The position numbers were made by a program, and so were the translations under genes. Shown here one piece after another: positions 23,278-31,663 of a stretch of 31,663 nt of DNA; within the stretch, counting starts at the first letter, position 1; each line of letters opens with the position of its first letter. This stretch comes from Armatimonadota bacterium (lineage in GTDB: Bacteria > Armatimonadota > Zipacnadia > Zipacnadales > UBA5352), in contig JAYENL010000186.1 of the NCBI GenBank assembly GCA_034722055.1, positions 1-31,663 on the forward strand, given 5' to 3'. The notes below the pieces were generated by a model, which saw only the letters and a program-made list of their open reading frames with translations, did not search any database and was not told the DNA's origin.

Positions 23278-24114
23278 ATGGGTGCACTGACACGGGCGCC
23301 ATGGCGAGCGCTGTGCGCGGTCGCACTGGCCGCGCTGGCTGCCGTCATGGGATTCGCCCAGGACGAAGAGCAGGATGCCGCGGTGGTCCGGCGCGTGGCG
23401 GTCGTTGACATGCAGGGGCTGCTGTCGCAGTACGAGGCCTTCCAGGCCGAGAACGCCGACCTCGAGGAACTGAGGGCCCAGCGGGGTGCGTGGCTGAACC
23501 GCCTCCTGGAGTACGTCTTCCTCCCACAGGCTGACTTCGAGGAGGCCCTGGAGCTGCTGCGCAAGAACGGTGAGCTGACGGAGGAGGAGAAGCAGCGGCT
23601 GGAGGAGCTCAAGCGCATCTCCAAGGAGCGGGACGAGCAGTTCGCCGAGCTCCGGGCCAAGCCGGATCGGTCGGCCGAGGAGAACACGCAGTACAATACG
23701 CTCGACGAGATGGCGGACGCGCGGCTGGAGCAGATCCAGCAGATCAAGGCGGAGTTCGAGCAGGAGCTGACCGACCGCTATCAGACCAGCGCCGAGGGCC
23801 TCCGCGAGAAGGTGCGGCAGGCCATCATCGCCGAGGCGGAAGAGGGCGGCTACGACCTGGTCGTGGACGCCGACGCCGTATTCGTCGGCGGTGAGAACAT
23901 CACCGACAGGGTGGTTGAGCGGCTCAACAAGGCCACCGAAACTGAGGGCGGCGAGGAGGCCGGTGCCCAGCCGGAGGCCGGCGCTCAGCCCGAAGGCGGG
24001 CAGGCAGAGGGCGGCCAGGAGGAGGGCGCTGAGCAGGGAGGCGGACAGGAGGAAGGCGGCCAGCAGGAGGGCGGCGCCGAGGGCGGTGCTCAGGAAGGTG
24101 GCGGAGGGCAGTAG
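23278..24114 (+). CDS. skp: Skp/OmpH-family periplasmic chaperone with Gly/Glu/Gln tail
   Basis: Signal peptide; VAVVDMQ; coiled coil; GYDLVVD...GGENITDRVVERLN; lies between bamA and lpxD. Confidence 0.88.
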   Translation: MGALTRAPWRALCAVALAALAAVMGFAQDEEQDAAVVRRVAVVDMQGLLSQYEAFQAENADLEELRAQRGAWLNRLLEYVFLPQADFEEALELLRKNGELTEEEKQRLEELKRISKERDEQFAELRAKPDRSAEENTQYNTLDEMADARLEQIQQIKAEFEQELTDRYQTSAEGLREKVRQAIIAEAEEGGYDLVVDADAVFVGGENITDRVVERLNKATETEGGEEAGAQPEAGAQPEGGQAEGGQEEGAEQGGGQEEGGQQEGGAEGGAQEGGGGQ

Positions 24115-25237
24115 CAGGCACGTGGTGGCGGCGCTTGTCGTGGCCGTGGCGGCGGGATGCATCACGACCGGGTGCGGGCCGCGGACGGCCAGGAGCATCC
24201 CCCGGCCGAGGGAGCGCCGGGAGGGGTACGCCTACACCGCCATGCTCATGGTCCGGCACCCGCTCTATGAGGCGCTCGGAGAGCTGGAGAGCGCGCTGGA
24301 GGAGCTGGCCGACGGGGACTGGCAGCCGGTACTGGAACCAATAGGCGCGCGGTTCGAGCAGATGGCGCTGGCTGAGAGCTTCGCGTTCGCTGACCCGTCC
24401 CAGCGGCTCGTCCACCTGCGGCGGGGGTGGCGGGAGAGCTACCCGCAGGTGGAGATCGATCCTGAGAACCTGGCGGCCGATCTGCAGACGCGCATCCAGT
24501 GGGAGCGCCAGCAGGCCCGTCGCTACGTCGCCGAGCGCATGGCGGATGCGGAGGCCGCCGAGAGCCGGCGGATAGCGCAGCTCCGTGCCAGGATGGTCAG
24601 GCAGCAGCAGGAGCGGCTGCTCAACCTGGGCATCGAGGCCGCCAGCGCAGACCAACAGCTCTCCGAGCAGGCCCAGCGGGAGCGCCAGCGCGTCTGGGAC
24701 GCCATCGAGGCCCAGGTGGAGGCGGAGCGTCGTGCCGGACAGGAGGCCCTCGCGGAGCTGCGTGAGCAGTTGCAGGCCGAGGCCCAGCAAGGGGTGGATG
24801 ATGCCCTGGAGGACGCGCGGGCGATCATGGCGGGGCGAGAGACGGAGATGCGTACCGCGGGCTCTGAGCTTCATGCCGAGATGGCGCAGGAGATGTCCCG
24901 GCCCTGGCAGGGGGTTGCGCAGGCAGAGGTGATGGTCGAGTCGGACCCATCCGCGGCGAACGCCGCCTTGCGTGAGGCGGACAGCTTGCGGGTGCAGGCG
25001 GAACAGGCTCGGGAGGAGGCCGCTGAGCTGCAGAGGCGGCGGCTGCACAGCGCGATTGGCCGGCTGCGCGCGCAGATCAAATCCGGGACGGAGCGGGCGG
25101 CGCGCGTGGTGGCGTATCGCGAGGGGATCGACCTGCAGCTACTGCCTGGCGGATCGGCTCGGGGGGAGAACGTGACTGGCATCATTGCCCAACGCTTGGA
25201 GGCGTTCTGGAGCGTCTCGGAGGACCGAAGGAGTTGA
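24086..25237 (+). CDS. Elongated Skp/OmpH-like coiled-coil protein, probable lipoprotein (start uncertain: 24086, 24098 or 24122)
   Basis: Hydrophobic stretch ending AAGC/TTGC; long Q/E/R/A helices; C-terminus GIDLQL...GENVTGIIAQRL parallels that of the upstream Skp. Confidence 0.7.
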   Translation: MLRKVAEGSSRHVVAALVVAVAAGCITTGCGPRTARSIPRPRERREGYAYTAMLMVRHPLYEALGELESALEELADGDWQPVLEPIGARFEQMALAESFAFADPSQRLVHLRRGWRESYPQVEIDPENLAADLQTRIQWERQQARRYVAERMADAEAAESRRIAQLRARMVRQQQERLLNLGIEAASADQQLSEQAQRERQRVWDAIEAQVEAERRAGQEALAELREQLQAEAQQGVDDALEDARAIMAGRETEMRTAGSELHAEMAQEMSRPWQGVAQAEVMVESDPSAANAALREADSLRVQAEQAREEAAELQRRRLHSAIGRLRAQIKSGTERAARVVAYREGIDLQLLPGGSARGENVTGIIAQRLEAFWSVSEDRRS

Positions 25238-25243
25238 CACAGG

Positions 25244-26293
25244 TTGGGAGCGATCACGTACCGGCTCTGTGAGCTTGCCGAGCGAGTTGAGGGGGAGCTG
25301 CGCGGAAACGGGGACGTCACCATCACCGGCGTGGGGCACCTCGAAGACGCCAATCCCGGTGAGATCACCTTCGCCGATGGGCCCAGTCTGCAGTCTCTGG
25401 CCGAAGCCAGCAACGCCTCTGCGCTGATCGTGCCTCCGGACGTGGAGGTGACCGACAAGCCCTTCATCGTGACCGAGGACCCCAGGCTGGCCTTCTCCAA
25501 GGTCCTGGAGCTGTTCGCTCCTGAAATGCGTCCGGAGGCCGGCGTACATCCCACGGCAGTGATCGGCGAGAACGTGACCCTCGGCGAGGCAGTCAGCGTC
25601 GGCGCTAACGCCTACATCGGCGACGGCAGCATCATCGGAGACGGCAGCGTGGTGCACCCGCTGGCCTACGTGGGGCCGGAGGTGGTCGTGGGGCGGGACT
25701 GTGAGATCCATGCCCAGGTGTACATCGGCGCGCGGGTGCAGCTTGGCGACCGGGTCATCCTCCACGGGGGCGCGGCGGTGGGAGCCGACGGCTTCGGCTT
25801 CCTGCAGACTGAAGAGGGGCACCGCAAGATCCCCCAGATCAGCACCGTGATCCTCGATGATGACGTGGAGATCGGCGCCAACTCCACGGTGGACCGAGCC
25901 ACTGTGTCGGCCACGCGCATCGGAGCCGGCACCAAGATCGACGACCAGGTGCACGTGGCCCACAACGTGGTCATCGGCCGCAACTGCCTGCTGTGCGGCC
26001 AGGTGGGGATCGCCGGCAGCACCATCATCGGCGACAACGTGGTGATGGGCGGGCAGGCCGGCGTCAACGACCACGTGGAGGTATGCTCCGGCGCTGTCAT
26101 CGCCGCAAAGGCCGGGGTCATCGGCAACATCGACGAGGAGGGCATCTACTCCGGATACCCCGCGCGGTCACACCACGAGCAGTTGCGGGTGGCGGCTCAC
26201 GCCCGGAAGCTGCCGGAGCTGGTTGAGCGCATCAAGGAACTCGAGCAGATCGTGGCCGAGCTGCGCAGCCGGCTCGGGGAGCGCTCCGACTGA
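25244..26293 (+). CDS. lpxD: UDP-3-O-(3-hydroxyacyl)glucosamine N-acyltransferase
   Basis: Hexapeptide repeats; GADGFGF; EIGANSTVDRA; KIDDQVHVAHN. Confidence 0.96.
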   Translation: MGAITYRLCELAERVEGELRGNGDVTITGVGHLEDANPGEITFADGPSLQSLAEASNASALIVPPDVEVTDKPFIVTEDPRLAFSKVLELFAPEMRPEAGVHPTAVIGENVTLGEAVSVGANAYIGDGSIIGDGSVVHPLAYVGPEVVVGRDCEIHAQVYIGARVQLGDRVILHGGAAVGADGFGFLQTEEGHRKIPQISTVILDDDVEIGANSTVDRATVSATRIGAGTKIDDQVHVAHNVVIGRNCLLCGQVGIAGSTIIGDNVVMGGQAGVNDHVEVCSGAVIAAKAGVIGNIDEEGIYSGYPARSHHEQLRVAAHARKLPELVERIKELEQIVAELRSRLGERSD

Positions 26294-26313
26294 CGGTCCG
26301 CTACACCACCTTC

Positions 26314-28161
26314 ATGGCAGCCTCGCATCCCTCCCGTACCTGCGACATTCAGCCCCGCGCCCGCCCCATCGGCGGCCGCACGCGTGCGTGGCACGTGGCG
26401 GCCGTCGTCGCCTTCCTCAGCGCCGTCTCTCCCCCAGCGCATGCCGACCGCGTTTTGGCCTTCGGCACCGCCACCGGCGCCATCGGCGGAGTGGCCACGG
26501 CGGAGGTGCATGCCGACGGGCTGGTGCTCATGCGCCTGCGGTCACCGAGGGCGGACGAGCTGGCCCCGAAGGCCGAGCTCGTGGCCTCGCGGCTGACGGA
26601 CCTGGCCGTGGAGGGCCTGGCGCCCGGGGAGCTGGCGGTGCAGCAGGTGGCGGGGCAGTGGGCCGTCACCGGCGCGGGGGAGCTGATCGTCACCGCAGAT
26701 CCCGACACAGTGGCGGCGTCGGGTCTTGAAGCCAGAGACCTGTGCGAGAGCTGGCGCAAGCGGCTGGCGGAGGTGCTCCGCGAGCCCTACCTGGTCATCG
26801 AGCCGGCCGACACAGTGCTGGTTCCGGTCGGCGAGCGGAGAAGCGTGCGGGTGGGCGGGACGGTTGACGCCGGGCGGAGGGCGGAGTCCCTGGCTCCCGA
26901 CGTGGTCCGGGCTGCGTTCGAGGGCCGCAAGCTGGTGCTGCAGGGACGGAACACCGGGACGACGGTGGTGGCCATCAGCGCCGGAGAGCTGGAGCACGCG
27001 CTGACCGTGGAGGTCAAGCGCTGGGCGGCCAGGATGATCGACAGCGCCGCCGTGCGCACCGCCGGGGGCGGCCTGAGTGAGGCCATGGCCCGGGCGGCCG
27101 CTCTCAACGCGGCGCTGTTCAGCATCAGCCCCGAGCCCCAGGCGGTGGTACACCTCGTCAGCGCCAATCCCACGAAGGGGGGCTACAGCCTCGACCTGCG
27201 AGCCGGGGGGCCGGACTACATCCCGGTCAGCGGGCAGATTCTGGTGCGGTTCCGTGCGGGGCTGCCAGTGATTCCCCCCGCGCACGCGCTGCTGATGAGC
27301 AACTACCCGGAGAAGGTGGCGGGCGTGGGCGCCCTGATGCGCCAGCCGCTCGAGCGCGGGCATCCCGCCAGGCTCATGTGGCACCACAAGAACTACGCCG
27401 GCCATCCGCTGGTGATGGCGGTGCGGCTGATCAATAGGGGGCAGAGCCCCGCGCGGGTCCGGATAGGTTGGGCGGAGGCCGGGCCGGACCGCGACGAGAT
27501 ATTCGTGGGCTACAACGCCATGCTCCGCTACTGGCAGGCGGTGCGGGCGGGCTCGTGCTTTGAGGCCCGCATCCCCTCGTGCGCCAGCTTCGAGGCTGTG
27601 ACCACGCCCATCGGCTACCACGAGGTCGTCAGCGGCATGATGGACGTGGTGGCCGATGAGGGCGAGGAGGTCTACGTGGAGGTGGCAGCGCGCGACCGCC
27701 GGGACGTGCCGCGCGGCTTCGGCCGGGTCCCTCACCACGGCGACGAGATGCCCGTGACCCCCTTCGAGTTCCCGGCCTCACTCGACCGCGAGCTCAGCTA
27801 CGAGGTGGGCGGCCCGTACGGGCACCTGAGCATCGGGCGGGAGGAGGTCGTCAATGACGAGGGCGTGGCGCTGGCGGGGGCCTACGGTGTGATGCATAAC
27901 ATCCGCGTGGCCCTGGGTAACCCGGCCCGGGAGCCGGGGCGGGTGGAGCTGGCGGTGCGCGCCGGGGGCGGGGTGGCGCGGACCATCACCGCCGTGGACG
28001 GCGCCCTGACCTCCACCAGGCTCCTGCTGGCGGGGCAGGAGGAGGTCCTGGCCACTCGTGACCTGCCTCCGGGCGGCAGAGGGGAGCTGCGGGTGCAGAT
28101 GATGCCCGCGGCCGGCTCGAATCTGCCGCTGACCCTTGTGGTTCGCGGCCGCACCCGCTGA
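26314..28161 (+). CDS. Secreted multidomain hypothetical protein
   Basis: Signal-like segment ending AHA-D; Ig-like segment (VPVGERRSV...GTTVVAI); LLMSNYPE motif; host-like codon usage. Confidence 0.75.
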   Translation: MAASHPSRTCDIQPRARPIGGRTRAWHVAAVVAFLSAVSPPAHADRVLAFGTATGAIGGVATAEVHADGLVLMRLRSPRADELAPKAELVASRLTDLAVEGLAPGELAVQQVAGQWAVTGAGELIVTADPDTVAASGLEARDLCESWRKRLAEVLREPYLVIEPADTVLVPVGERRSVRVGGTVDAGRRAESLAPDVVRAAFEGRKLVLQGRNTGTTVVAISAGELEHALTVEVKRWAARMIDSAAVRTAGGGLSEAMARAAALNAALFSISPEPQAVVHLVSANPTKGGYSLDLRAGGPDYIPVSGQILVRFRAGLPVIPPAHALLMSNYPEKVAGVGALMRQPLERGHPARLMWHHKNYAGHPLVMAVRLINRGQSPARVRIGWAEAGPDRDEIFVGYNAMLRYWQAVRAGSCFEARIPSCASFEAVTTPIGYHEVVSGMMDVVADEGEEVYVEVAARDRRDVPRGFGRVPHHGDEMPVTPFEFPASLDRELSYEVGGPYGHLSIGREEVVNDEGVALAGAYGVMHNIRVALGNPAREPGRVELAVRAGGGVARTITAVDGALTSTRLLLAGQEEVLATRDLPPGGRGELRVQMMPAAGSNLPLTLVVRGRTR

Positions 28162-28285
28162 GCTTCCGCGGCAGTCCGTCCTCTTCGTAGCGAACTCAAG
28201 CCGCTGCCGCCATCCTGTGCGCCGCGAGGCCGGCCTCCGTGGATCGTGCCAGGTGCCGTTGCGCGGGTCGGGCGCAGTCCGGCGC

Positions 28286-28314
28286 TTGCCAATCGGCCCT
28301 CCCCGCGGTATCAT
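28286..28314 (+). promoter_or_regulatory. sigma70-type promoter of murJ
   Basis: TTGCCA-17 bp-TATCAT. Confidence 0.6.
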
Positions 28315-28324
28315 CTTCGCTGAC

Positions 28325-30028
28325 ATGGATGACGCAACGCCCGCGGGGGAGGATTCCCCGCAGCAACCCGGTGGCGCGACCTCCTGGATGGCCGATGCGG
28401 CCATCCTGATGATGTTCGCGACCCTCATGAGCGCCATCACCGGCCTGCTGCGCGAGGCGGCCATCGGCCATCAGTACGGCCGCGGGTACATCACCGACGC
28501 CTTCTACAACGCCCTGACGATCCCGGACTTCCTCTACTTCCTGGTCGCCGGCGGGGCCCTGCGTACCGGCTTCGTGCCCGTCTTCACCGAGCTGATGGCG
28601 CGGGGACAGGAGGACCGCGCCTGGCGGACCTTCAGCACCCTCTTCTGGCTGCTGGCCATGGTCTCGGCCCTGCTGGCCGGGGCGGGGATGCTGCTGGCCG
28701 AGCCGCTGGCGCACCTGGTGAACCCCGCCTGGGCCGGGGAGAGCACGGCACCGACAGTGCGATCGATCCTCACCACGCTGGGCCTCATCGCCCCCGGGCA
28801 GGAGGGCAATCCCGAGCCCCTGGCGCTGTGCGCGGCCATCATGCGCCTGCTGTTCCCGGCGCAGATCTTCTTTCTGCTCGGCGGCCTGCTGATGGGCACG
28901 CTCAACGCCCGCAGGCACTTCTTCTGGCCCGCGATGGGGCCCATCATCTACAACCTGGCGATCATCACCGCCGCCCTGGTGGCGCCGCTGCTGCTGGGAC
29001 CGACCACGCTCGGCTACGGCGCCCTGGCCGGGGCGATGGTGGGGAACTTCGCCGTCCAGATGGTGGCGCTGCGCAATCGCGGCGGGCGGCTGCAGCTCAG
29101 CCTCGCGCCCACCGGAACCGGCGTGCGCCGGGTGCTGCTGCTGGCCTTCCCGGTGATGCTGGGGCTGGCCATCGCGGAGATCAACTTCGTGGTCACCAAG
29201 GTTCTCGCCAACGTGGTGGACGAGGATGGCGGCGTCTCCACGCTCAACTACGCGAATCGCCTCTGGAAGCTGCCCGCGCGGGTCATCGGCGCCGGTATTG
29301 CCATCGCGCTCTTTCCGGCCCTGGCGGAGCATTACGCGCGCGACGACCCCGACCAGTTCCAGAGGGACTTCTCGTTCGGCATCCGGAACGCGGTCTTCTT
29401 GACCCTCCCGGCCACGGCGCTTATCATGATCCTGGCGGAGCCTTCGGTGCGGTTGTTGTGGCCGCGGTTCACCGATGAGGGCGTGTGGGCGGTGGCGGTC
29501 ACGCTCCTGTGGTTCAGCGCCGGTATCGTCCCCCTGTCACTGGTGTACATCGCCGCCCGCGCCTTCTACGCCCGCCACGATACGATGACGCCGGTGTGGA
29601 TCGGCGCCATCTCGGTGGCCGCCTGCATCACCGCCGCGGTCACCCTGGACGGGCCCTACCGGGTTGCCGGCCTGGCGATGGCGACCTCCATCAGCGGGGT
29701 CATCAACGCCACGCTGCTGCTGGTGATGCTGCAGGTTCGGGTCGGGGGCCTGGGCGGCCGGGAAATCGCGCGCTCCATTCTGCGCATGATCCCGCCCACG
29801 GCGCTGCTGACGCTGGTGGCCTGGGGGAGCCTGGCGGCCCTCGAAGTGGTCCTGCCGGGCGGCGGAATGGGCGGGATGCTGGAGCGCCTGCTGGTGGTCT
29901 TCGTGCCGATGGGCCTGGGAGCGCTGGCCTTCATCGCCCTCGCCCGCACCATGCGCCTGCGCGAGCTGCAGAGCGCGTGGCGGATGATGGCGCGGCGGTT
30001 CAATCGCGGGGGTCAGCAGCCACGCTGA
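28325..30028 (+). CDS. murJ: Lipid II flippase MurJ/MviN
   Basis: GLLRE...TDAF...IPD; GGAL...FVPVF; LNYANRLWKLP; RAFYARHDTMTP; about 14 TM segments. Confidence 0.95.
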   Translation: MDDATPAGEDSPQQPGGATSWMADAAILMMFATLMSAITGLLREAAIGHQYGRGYITDAFYNALTIPDFLYFLVAGGALRTGFVPVFTELMARGQEDRAWRTFSTLFWLLAMVSALLAGAGMLLAEPLAHLVNPAWAGESTAPTVRSILTTLGLIAPGQEGNPEPLALCAAIMRLLFPAQIFFLLGGLLMGTLNARRHFFWPAMGPIIYNLAIITAALVAPLLLGPTTLGYGALAGAMVGNFAVQMVALRNRGGRLQLSLAPTGTGVRRVLLLAFPVMLGLAIAEINFVVTKVLANVVDEDGGVSTLNYANRLWKLPARVIGAGIAIALFPALAEHYARDDPDQFQRDFSFGIRNAVFLTLPATALIMILAEPSVRLLWPRFTDEGVWAVAVTLLWFSAGIVPLSLVYIAARAFYARHDTMTPVWIGAISVAACITAAVTLDGPYRVAGLAMATSISGVINATLLLVMLQVRVGGLGGREIARSILRMIPPTALLTLVAWGSLAALEVVLPGGGMGGMLERLLVVFVPMGLGALAFIALARTMRLRELQSAWRMMARRFNRGGQQPR

Positions 30029-30043
30029 CGATGCTATTTGCTA

Positions 30044-30266
30044 AGCCGTCTCGAGGGGCGCGACTACGTTCGCGCCCGGCAGTTGCCGTTCGCCGTCCGG
30101 AAGGACGCATGTTCACATGCGTCCGTCGTTGATGTGGTCGTTGTCGTTCGCCGTTGCCCAGCCGTCTGGAGGGGCCGGCCTCCGTTCCGGCCCGGCCGTG
30201 TGGCGTTGTCGTGAGCCGTTGCCGCAAGCCGTTCCGTGGCACGCACACTCCTGTGCGTGCGTCGTT
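30044..30266 (+). repeat. Left REP-like mosaic: hairpin modules A', B, A, C joined by GCCGTT-type linkers
   Basis: A' CGAG-GGGCGCGA-N6-TCGCGCCC; B GGAA-GGACGCATG-TTCA-CATGCGTCC; A GGAG-GGGCCGG-N8-CCGGCCC; C GTG-GCACGCACA-CTCC-TGTGCGTGC. Confidence 0.9.
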
Positions 30267-30324
30267 GCTCGTGAAGCCGTTGGTCTTGGGCCTCGCGCGG
30301 TCGCAGGAGGCACGCGAAGGGGGC

Positions 30325-31566
30325 GTGTGGTTGTTCCGAGTATGTGTGCAAGACGCAACGACCTGGGACTGGACATTTGAGGGCAAAGAGAGGAAAGCCG
30401 AGGAGATGGCAGAGTGGTGGCTAAGAGTTCCCTTGCACAATGTGCCACTTCCGACTGACTCGGACGTGCAAGACATTCAGCTTCGGCCGCGTCTCCCGTG
30501 GTACGAGGCCCGTAAGGCGATAGAGGACGCGAAGCACAAGGGTAGGCCGTTTGTTCCTACAGCCGATGCGATCGTGGAAGTGGGTGCTTCGGACCAGCGG
30601 CCAGACAACCCCTGGGACGACCTAGAGAGATGCGGGTTCTGGGACCTCCGTGACGCGCTGCAGTTCATGCTTCAGCGCGACATCCCTGCGTGCCACGTTT
30701 ACTTGCATCAGACACCGGACTGCTCCGACGAGGGCATTGGGCCGAGTAGTCGCCTCACCATCAGCATGGTACCATATGCGTCACACATCCAGGTGCTGGG
30801 CTGGGCGGAGTGCCTCCGTGACGCGACGAGGGCCTGGGCGAATGATGACCTCGACGCGAGAACTGATTTCCGGTACGCAGCCAAGTTCCAGCATGTGGCG
30901 AAGATACCCACGATACCCCTGGAGTCGATGTTCATCCAGCAGTGGATCGCGTTCGAGCTCCTTTTCAACCGATGGTGTGAGGTGGAGCCCGATGCGCCAC
31001 GGGACCTGAAGATCAGCGAGGGCACTGTCAGGCGTGAGGTGCGGCCAGCAATCGAGCAGGCCCTCCGTCCTCTGGTGAACTCGGGGCATATCACGGAAGT
31101 AGAAGCTGAAGCTCTGGTCTGCGACGTGCGTCCTAAGGTCTTCGAGCGCGCGCAAGTGAAGGCGGTGGCGTTCCTGGACAGTCTCCGGATCGACGATGTC
31201 CCTGCGGATTGGCTCAGGTGGTGCATCAGAATACGCAACACACTGGTCCACGGACGCAGCTGGCGCGAGCTCTATGCAGATGAACGGGGTGATGTGGAAG
31301 ACCCCCTTGTTGACATGAGTACACGCGTGCAGCAAACACGCATGCTGGTCAATCGCGCGATAATGAGCTTCTTCGGGTACGAGCCGGAGGGGTGGCACTT
31401 CAATCAGGTGCGTCCGGGCCGCTACCGCCGGGCCGGCCAAGTACTGGGCATGCGAACGGAAGAGTCCAGTGAGTGTCGCGACACAACTCACGGCAAACGG
31501 CGCACGCACAGGAGTGTGCGTGCCACGGAACGGCGAAGGGCAACGGCAAACGGCCGACGCATGTGA
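30325..31566 (+). CDS. Hypothetical protein with putative C-terminal HEPN (Apea/MauJ-like) domain; start GTG 30325 or ATG 30406
   Basis: FIQQWIAFELL helix and RNTLVHG (R-x4-H); visibly more A/T-ending codons than flanking genes. Confidence 0.65.
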   Translation: MWLFRVCVQDATTWDWTFEGKERKAEEMAEWWLRVPLHNVPLPTDSDVQDIQLRPRLPWYEARKAIEDAKHKGRPFVPTADAIVEVGASDQRPDNPWDDLERCGFWDLRDALQFMLQRDIPACHVYLHQTPDCSDEGIGPSSRLTISMVPYASHIQVLGWAECLRDATRAWANDDLDARTDFRYAAKFQHVAKIPTIPLESMFIQQWIAFELLFNRWCEVEPDAPRDLKISEGTVRREVRPAIEQALRPLVNSGHITEVEAEALVCDVRPKVFERAQVKAVAFLDSLRIDDVPADWLRWCIRIRNTLVHGRSWRELYADERGDVEDPLVDMSTRVQQTRMLVNRAIMSFFGYEPEGWHFNQVRPGRYRRAGQVLGMRTEESSECRDTTHGKRRTHRSVRATERRRATANGRRM

Positions 31567-31663
31567 ACATGCGTCGCTCCGGACGGCAACGGCAGACGGC
31601 AAACGGCCGGGCCGGGACGGAGACCGGCCCCTCCAGACGACTGGGCATACGACAAGGGCCGGG
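31491..31663 (-). repeat. Right REP-like mosaic, inverted: C, B, A, and possibly another A cut by the window edge
   Basis: 31501-31534 = rc of 30228-30261 (34/34); 31555-31587 vs 30092-30124 (30/33); 31603-31647 vs 30155-30199 (42/45). Confidence 0.92.

Follow-up and report, generated by a model that had tools for sequence, protein, structure and literature searches.

What does it mean that a single gene of foreign composition, downstream of the conserved murJ gene, is enclosed by two facing arrays of hairpin repeats, in the way in which a RAYT gene (rayt/tnpA-REP) lies between two inverted REPs in a REPtron (PMC2817692 and PMC3333891, in their accessible parts)? The stretch analysed here (the window) is the entire contig C186, 31,663 nt in length, of an Armatimonadota genome of 6.14 Mb, 330 contigs and 68% GC (G000). 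A sequence-only reading had proposed that it contains a REP-bounded, integron-like slot for gene capture or exchange, in which a HEPN-like gene stands in place of the transposase. The explanation favoured in the current work, at a probability of roughly 0.4, is that the HEPN gene sits in a turnover slot of fixed position, in the middle of a nested REP array whose paired arms are involved in exchange.

Layout of the cassette and its flanks

The features of the locus are as follows (positions in the window).

28328..30028, + strand: murJ, conserved left flank of the slot (Pfam MurJ, E 1.4e-85); lepA is the next gene in relatives
30038..30083, + strand: REP module A', tag degenerate; 34 non-overlapping matches in the genome
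30092..30130, + strand: left REP module B, tag degenerate; 35/39 relative to right B; class flanks RAYT at C256 and in relatives
30155..30206, + strand: left REP module A, tag GGAG at 30168; 47/52 relative to right A; 231 genome matches; class flanks RAYT at C30
30228..30261, + strand: left REP module C with its GTGG tag at 30236, forming the left half of the identical inner pair; its class borders the RAYT at C324
30406..31566, + strand: predicted ApeA-like HEPN gene, 386 aa from the ATG at 30406; 12 homologues, PF18739 in 3/13 family members, AF2 model and HEPN fold matches
31234..31251, + strand: HEPN motif RxxxxH, with the same R and H in 13/13 aligned proteins
31501..31534, - strand: right REP module C, forming the right half of the identical inner pair, within the read-through tail of the ORF
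31549..31587, - strand: right REP module B, tag GGAG at 31580
31596..31647, - strand: right REP module A (GGAG tag at 31634), in an array that extends to the contig end at 31663

All seven modules were located as the sequence-only reading had described them, those on the left being on the + strand and those on the right on the - strand, and its claim that the innermost module C is identical on both sides was confirmed (34/34, with 35/39 for B and 47/52 for A across the HEPN gene). Because the C 34-mer has only 9 exact copies among the approximately 1069 REP elements of the genome, this match exceeds what is expected by chance. The coding spacer between the inner C arms measures 1240 nt. The tags had been described as being of the GTAG/GGAG type: GGAG is indeed carried by A and right B, whereas GTAG is not found, C having GTGG and left B and A' having degenerate tags. 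The view that the two arrays were assembled independently is only partly right, as two homologous cassettes show a mirror-nested module order.

The end of the contig carrying lepA (C67) holds further A, B and C modules, located before lepA and in the same polarity as the right array. The order is therefore very likely murJ, REPs (+), HEPN gene, REPs (-), lepA, with the junction of C186 and C67 deduced rather than assembled; the site thus sits within the murJ-lepA gene order and not simply at the end of a housekeeping operon, as had been suggested. Inward of left module C, positions 30283-30330 look on visual inspection like a degraded member of the REP class which forms the inner pair of a relative (G011), and the same class is also present after murJ in G009; this copy may be an old resident of the murJ-lepA site.

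REP identity of the modules, and their cognate RAYT genes elsewhere in the genome

Mapping of the modules across the genome by iterated profile searches yielded 517 non-overlapping matches, 231 of them to A, 194 to C, 58 to B and 34 to A', which form 312 clusters spread over 140 contigs, and a broader detector returned 1069 REP elements of many classes. The hairpins of the modules are imperfect and GC-rich, with folding energies of -11 to -13.5 kcal/mol and a GGAG/GTGG tag located 5'. The genome has six matches to PF01797 (RAYT), none of which is on C186, in agreement with the earlier statement that the enclosed ORF has no HUH/Y1 motif. Class A flanks the RAYT gene at C30, class B the one at C256 and class C the one at C324, although the class-C stems at C324 differ in sequence from the C modules of the HEPN cassette. 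The combination of tags and hairpins, high clustered copy number and RAYT genes flanked by the A, B and C classes identifies the modules as REPs in the sense of PMC2817692, and the cognate rayt genes that had been anticipated elsewhere in the genome are thereby found.

Across the family, 60 RAYT matches were retrieved from 17/18 genomes, at many different loci. For seven RAYT loci of relatives, the two flanking genes are direct neighbours in G000, and four of these gaps are REP-free and 13-71 nt long; RAYT units in this family thus look mobile, although precise loss in G000 would give the same picture. The RAYT locus at G000:C30 (with L133, L142, L143 and L149) is common to five genomes and carries a different REP variant in each, and this series, which resembles the 'orthoswitch' (PMC3686654, as far as its accessible text goes), indicates that REP class can switch in place.

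The enclosed gene encodes a predicted ApeA-like HEPN protein

The database call for the ORF (P0002) starts at 30346, while the ATG at 30406 agrees with the starts of its homologues. Its last approximately 40 codons run into the right REP array, so that right module C lies inside the ORF, and the homologues end earlier. The gene is present in single copy and, as had been claimed, is of atypical composition (GC 0.61, GC3 0.72 versus 0.93 for murJ), its codon usage placing it with the ~1% most atypical of the 4288 genes that were called by script.

A search of 1.84 billion representative sequences retrieved 12 homologues at E<=1e-30, the closest of which is labelled Candidatus Zipacnadia and another Armatimonadota; family members are 314-406 aa in length. 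Carriers amount to 4/79 genomes of the class and 4/401 in the phylum sample, each with one copy. The query itself has no match in Pfam, PADLOC or NCBIfam, and a PF18739 search of the 18 family genomes returned zero matches; PF18739 (HEPN_Apea) does match 3/13 members of the homologue family, the query not being among them (best E 9e-5). The two residues of the RxxxxH motif, R297 and H302, are invariant in the alignment. The AF2 model (pLDDT 86.5) retrieved HEPN domains on top in the VIA fold search, with 2hsb at Z 8.6 (rmsd 3.3, 118 aligned), a modest Z for a helical bundle, and 5yep (HepT) at Z 8.5; Foldseek returned nothing at E<=0.001, and a profile search of PDB sequences nothing below E 0.48. 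Among the nearest Atlas clusters, the best two (0.95) are unnamed and the next (0.94) carry ApeA_NTD1/HEPN_Apea in 11-34% of their members. No sigma-70-like promoter was found, and Rfam gave nothing meaningful (three matches, E 0.5-0.9). The HEPN-like assignment made at the outset is accordingly retained, as a predicted ApeA-like HEPN fold with an invariant RxxxxH and fold matches, encoded by a gene of foreign composition, and the product is a putative defence factor of the abortive-infection tRNase type.

ApeA proteins are anti-phage HEPN proteins that cleave tRNA and have a C-terminal helical HEPN domain with RxxxxH (bioRxiv 10.64898/2026.01.26.701840). The present protein is predicted to share this domain; its family shows weak PF18739 matches, and HepT (5yep), which stands among its top folds, is reported as a fold match of ApeA too. 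It differs in having approximately 345 aa and two domains, compared with the three domains (an N-terminal one, Mid and HEPN) of Ec2ApeA, which exceeds 580 aa (bioRxiv 10.64898/2026.01.26.701840).

The murJ-lepA site is variably occupied in relatives

Among 17 family relatives, 11 were readable (murJ and lepA on one contig) and six were not. Seven of the 11 have an empty site (G003, G004, G005, G009, G010, G012 and G016), two hold a homologue of the HEPN gene (G011 and G015) and two hold unrelated cargo, this being one ORF in G008 and three other genes in G014. Comparison of the murJ-downstream locus thus revealed the empty and differently filled alleles for which such a comparison had been proposed, and vertical conservation of the ORF in repeat-free relatives was not observed. 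RAYT is absent from the murJ-lepA site in all 11 readable relatives; the HEPN gene is therefore placed like the transposase of a REPtron in terms of architecture, while replacement of a transposase at this site is not shown.

The empty site of G005 is occupied by a 931-nt array in which + heads are followed by - heads, as is likewise the case in G009 and G016. In all three HEPN alleles (G000, G015 and G011) the gene stands where a mirror REP array changes from + to - and is enclosed by an exact inner inverted pair, of 34 nt and class C in G000, 33 nt and class A in G015, and 23 nt and a third class in G011. The 23-mer of the G015 pair occurs three times in its genome (both arms and one copy beside its RAYT gene) and that of G011 twice (the two arms), these counts being from incomplete genomes (87% for G015, 91% for G011) with under-assembled repeats. 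In the nine genomes tested in which murJ-lepA holds other genes, G008 and G014 included, no inverted match is longer than 9 nt.

This variability also fits an explanation in which the REPs are bystanders, the murJ-lepA site being an ordinary defence hotspot whose content is exchanged by homologous recombination in the conserved flanks, with REPs colonising it and becoming matched later in place by local copying or conversion. Cargo without REPs is present at the site in other families, where Fic, YfbU, DUF3800, nucleoside hydrolase or arylsulfotransferase genes are found, as well as in G008; approximately 1069 REP elements are available in the genome, and the in-place change of REP variant at the RAYT locus of five genomes points in the same direction. 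The nearly private arm variants of G015 and G011 argue against it.

Some further observations concern the cargo at this site. The G008 ORF (L070:2077-2970, ~300-340 aa) is unrelated (probability 0.11); it has no Pfam/NCBIfam match, has one hairpin on its right side only, and by eye possibly contains a PD-(D/E)XK-like motif. At the murJ-lepA site of L097 (G413, ~900-1893) and L068 (G021, ~2440-2660), a conserved structured non-coding stretch of ~130 nt precedes a DUF3800 gene, which is intact in G413 and a remnant after YfbU in G021; stretch and gene together look like an RNA-protein pair of the toxin-antitoxin type.

Ancestry of the enclosed gene

The cargo of G015 is 53% identical to that of G000, which belongs to another genus, versus 31% to that of G011 from its own genus, whereas in a host tree of murJ and lepA from 15 genomes G015 and G011 form one clade with support of 99. 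A clade of G015 and G011 cargoes is rejected by an AU test (p 2e-75), as obtained on a quick tree and for a group chosen from host taxonomy after the first tree had been viewed. The GC3 values of the three cargoes (0.72/0.72/0.64) are below those of the host murJ genes (0.93/0.94/0.76). This conflict between cargo and host trees, together with the low GC3, argues for separate acquisitions or replacement, and the HEPN gene is taken to be horizontally acquired. That it was instead present once at murJ-lepA in the family ancestor and then evolved fast and was lost repeatedly is very improbable, given the same tree conflict and unameliorated GC3, the interspersion of the seven empty alleles in the host tree, and the homologue that a second family carries at a different locus.

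How unusual is the bracket?

The sequence-only reading had implied that atypical genes should be enriched genome-wide between convergent mosaics. This expectation was largely disappointed: G000 has 161 atypical islands, of which, RAYT genes apart, only the HEPN cassette lies in a convergent bracket, and 147/161 are free of REPs. The latter figure is also a point against bystander REPs, while the former speaks against a general capture system. Four of the 23 convergent intervals of G000 are of low GC, namely three RAYT units and the cassette; low-GC intervals at C53, C76, C38 and C266 were discarded as runs of N. A gene-level enrichment (2/105 atypical versus 6/3455 typical genes) was likewise dropped, one of its two atypical genes (C209) being a REP array miscalled as an ORF.

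Matched arms were found by the tag-based detector in 6/23 convergent gene-sized intervals, comprising the HEPN cassette, one RAYT and four intervals around ordinary genes, compared with 4/81 in other orientations. Exact pairs of at least 20 nt surround ordinary genes in 4/20 of the other convergent gene-sized intervals, an interval-level background which supersedes earlier, too lenient estimates (1/24 typical genes; 5.5% of random windows). Against it, the 3/3 matched HEPN alleles give a Fisher p of 0.02, with the alleles being non-independent; this difference argues against bystander REPs, whereas the matched convergent pairs around resident genes (4/20 versus 4/81 in other orientations) argue for them. 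Two such pairs were followed in relatives: at C59 the left-side gene order is kept in 4/4 relatives with a match, and at C294 the neighbours are kept in G001 and on one side only in G010. Matched arms can therefore form without relocation and do not prove movement. Nor are they simply inherited from an empty doublet, since none of 128 short empty convergent doublets in G000 has arms identical over at least 20 nt (8/128 are of the same class).

At RAYT loci, an exact inverted match of at least 20 nt is present in 15/30 cases and, in a second set, in 19/45, the latter after removal of five loci with no detected HUH motif and eight at contig edges. In the roaming Mod-Mrr family, used as a control, such a pair occurs at 1/27 complete loci (30 loci, three at edges). 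A 13-nt head pattern was scanned in G015, G016, G003 and G011, one of these scans covering 100 of 206 matches; among the matches listed, four G015 candidates were inspected, G003:C58 and G016:C96 being left out. Two of the four are chance coding matches, one is a 26-nt pair around a sulfatase-like gene of typical GC3 and a second gene, and the last is a 20-nt pair around a Mod-Mrr gene.

Several side observations were made on repeat-associated genes. Convergent REP pairs of G000 that are 0.3-4 kb apart match exactly in 6/23 cases, versus 4/81 in other orientations and 0/128 short doublets, a pattern hinting at concerted copying over kilobases or at loss or non-assembly of perfect hairpins. A Mod-Mrr fusion gene in G015 (L184; G015:C19:6933-8817) lies between four + and one - class-B REPs with an inner pair of 20 nt, and its flanking genes are adjacent in G000, parted by a 750-nt REP array. 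Three relatives hold an extra gene, which we take from its sequence to be transaldolase-like, at the place of the REP array of G000:C59:9452-9818, and G010 lacks both. Three genes for small helical proteins (G000:C29:26921-27295, C303:~1470-1847 and C115:24495-24941), presumably akin to 'four helix bundle'/IVP proteins, each lie within inverted runs of 7-nt tandem repeats and constitute a second kind of repeat-bracketed gene in G000. Finally, a lower-GC membrane-protein gene at G000:C242:106773-107394 lies between direct repeats containing both the upstream gene's end and a REP, an arrangement like a diverged tandem duplication.

Homologues at other loci

In a genome of another family (G244), contig C45 carries a homologue and a truncated methylase downstream of argB, between a REP pair of 16 nt exact identity which is located at a contig edge and whose REP flanks a RAYT in G025. 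The outer junctions are those of an empty doublet on G244:C161 and of collapsed copies in G025 and G419. In G145 the argB locus is occupied by a full-length Mod-Mrr gene together with another gene, of 396 aa, and it differs again in G202 and G417. As the argB of G244:C45 is 88% identical to that of G145 versus 75% to that of C161, C45 may be a co-binned contig foreign to the G244 bin. The presence of the HEPN family inside a REP pair at this second locus is a further point against bystander REPs. On balance we hold the bystander explanation to be unlikely, though it is the strongest competitor of the favoured one. Among five homologue termini of sufficient length, the N-terminus of P0007 and the C-terminus of P0011 agree with translated REPs of the polarity predicted, while the other three have no match; a metagenome scan gave one locus (L036), with only ~50 nt of left flank and no REP on its readable right side.

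In a further explanation, REP, gene and REP together would form a non-autonomous REPtron, moved as a whole unit by RAYT in trans and preferring the centres of existing REP arrays. Its anatomy is that of RAYT units, with which it shares the low-GC convergent intervals (4/23); RAYTs occur at many loci (60 matches, 17/18 genomes), including the seven between G000-adjacent genes and the four REP-free gaps of 13-71 nt described above, and the REP next to the RAYT of G015 has the same sequence as the G015 arms. Such movement is nonetheless doubtful, and less probable than bystander REPs: there is a single copy per genome in 4/79 genomes, no cassette turned up at a naive site free of REPs, the spacing between REP and gene varies (147/60, 38/36 and 61/23 nt), and the inner flanks beyond the REPs match neither one another nor RAYT flanks. 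Even the E. coli REPtron has been argued not to transpose (PMC3333891, accessible part).

Comparison with known systems

Integron cassettes are variable slots that contain single defence-type genes with hairpin-forming boundaries; their attC sites are directly repeated, and they are organised in cassette arrays associated with an integrase. The present locus resembles them in its variable slot, its single defence-type gene and its hairpin-forming boundaries. It differs in that the boundaries are inverted REPs rather than direct attC sites and that each filled HEPN slot has one gene, with lepA next, and no integrase was found among the six ORFs scanned from 23278 to 31566. Of the proposed REP-bounded, integron-like capture slot, the variable alleles and the RAYT genes in trans hold up, while a general capture system does not (1/161), matched pairs being present also around resident genes.

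The likeness to a REPtron lies in one gene between inverted, near-identical tag-and-hairpin REPs (inner pair 34/34) of a genome-abundant class, in a flanking REP class that changes between genomes (orthoswitch, PMC3686654), and in empty alleles that retain repeats, as after precise tnpA-REP loss in E. coli B2 (PMC3333891). The difference is that the gene has a HEPN fold with no HUH/Y1 match, and that the relatives examined have no RAYT at the site. In the accessible part of PMC3333891, E. coli tnpA-REP is either lost precisely, leaving BIMEs, or replaced along with its BIMEs by hicAB; unlike in that replacement, the foreign gene here retains a matched REP pair. Inverted same-class doublets and mosaic arrays are shared with REPINs and BIMEs (PMC3337134, accessible part), the empty argB allele being such a doublet, whereas the spacer here is coding and 1.24 kb in length rather than short and hairpin-forming, and most short doublets in G000 combine different classes (8/128 same). 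In the main texts covered, largely of openly accessible papers, no report was found of a non-transposase gene held between matched cognate REPs.

Discussion

The HEPN cassette is a RAYT-less, REPtron-shaped passenger in a turnover site, and not a genome-wide integron-like platform. The turnover-slot explanation draws on the identity of the modules as REPs, RAYT in trans, empty and filled alleles, the position at the polarity switch, matched arms that change class, and the tree conflict; three of the four bracketed HEPN cases are at one locus and hence not independent. Slot content would be swapped by recombination at or between paired REP arms, probably assisted by nicking by RAYT enzymes encoded elsewhere. 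TnpA-REP nicks single-stranded REP DNA at a site chosen through the tag (PMC8266576, accessible part), and RAYT nicks would give recombinogenic ends at both arms. A part of the REPs in exchange is likely; we infer that RAYT acts on the cassette arms and that REPs direct gene entry or exit.

Why bacteria retain RAYT and hundreds of REPs is a long-standing question. Should Armatimonadota REPtrons still be mobile, RAYT might also move transposase-free REP-gene-REP units, a lineage-restricted HEPN gene being so carried, taking the REP class of its last mover and landing mid-array; this is improbable on present evidence but, if true, the host-beneficial role of a domesticated transposase would be the delivery of defence genes. 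If the REPs are bystanders, the locus would still document a class-wide hotspot of defence genes ahead of lepA, together with a new HEPN family of small size and with convergent REP pairs that often become matched in place over kilobases. Returning to the turnover slot, the cassette, which occurs in nature in occupied and unoccupied form at two loci and with a REP class that varies from genome to genome, provides defined substrates for tests of RAYT/REP-mediated capture or exchange.
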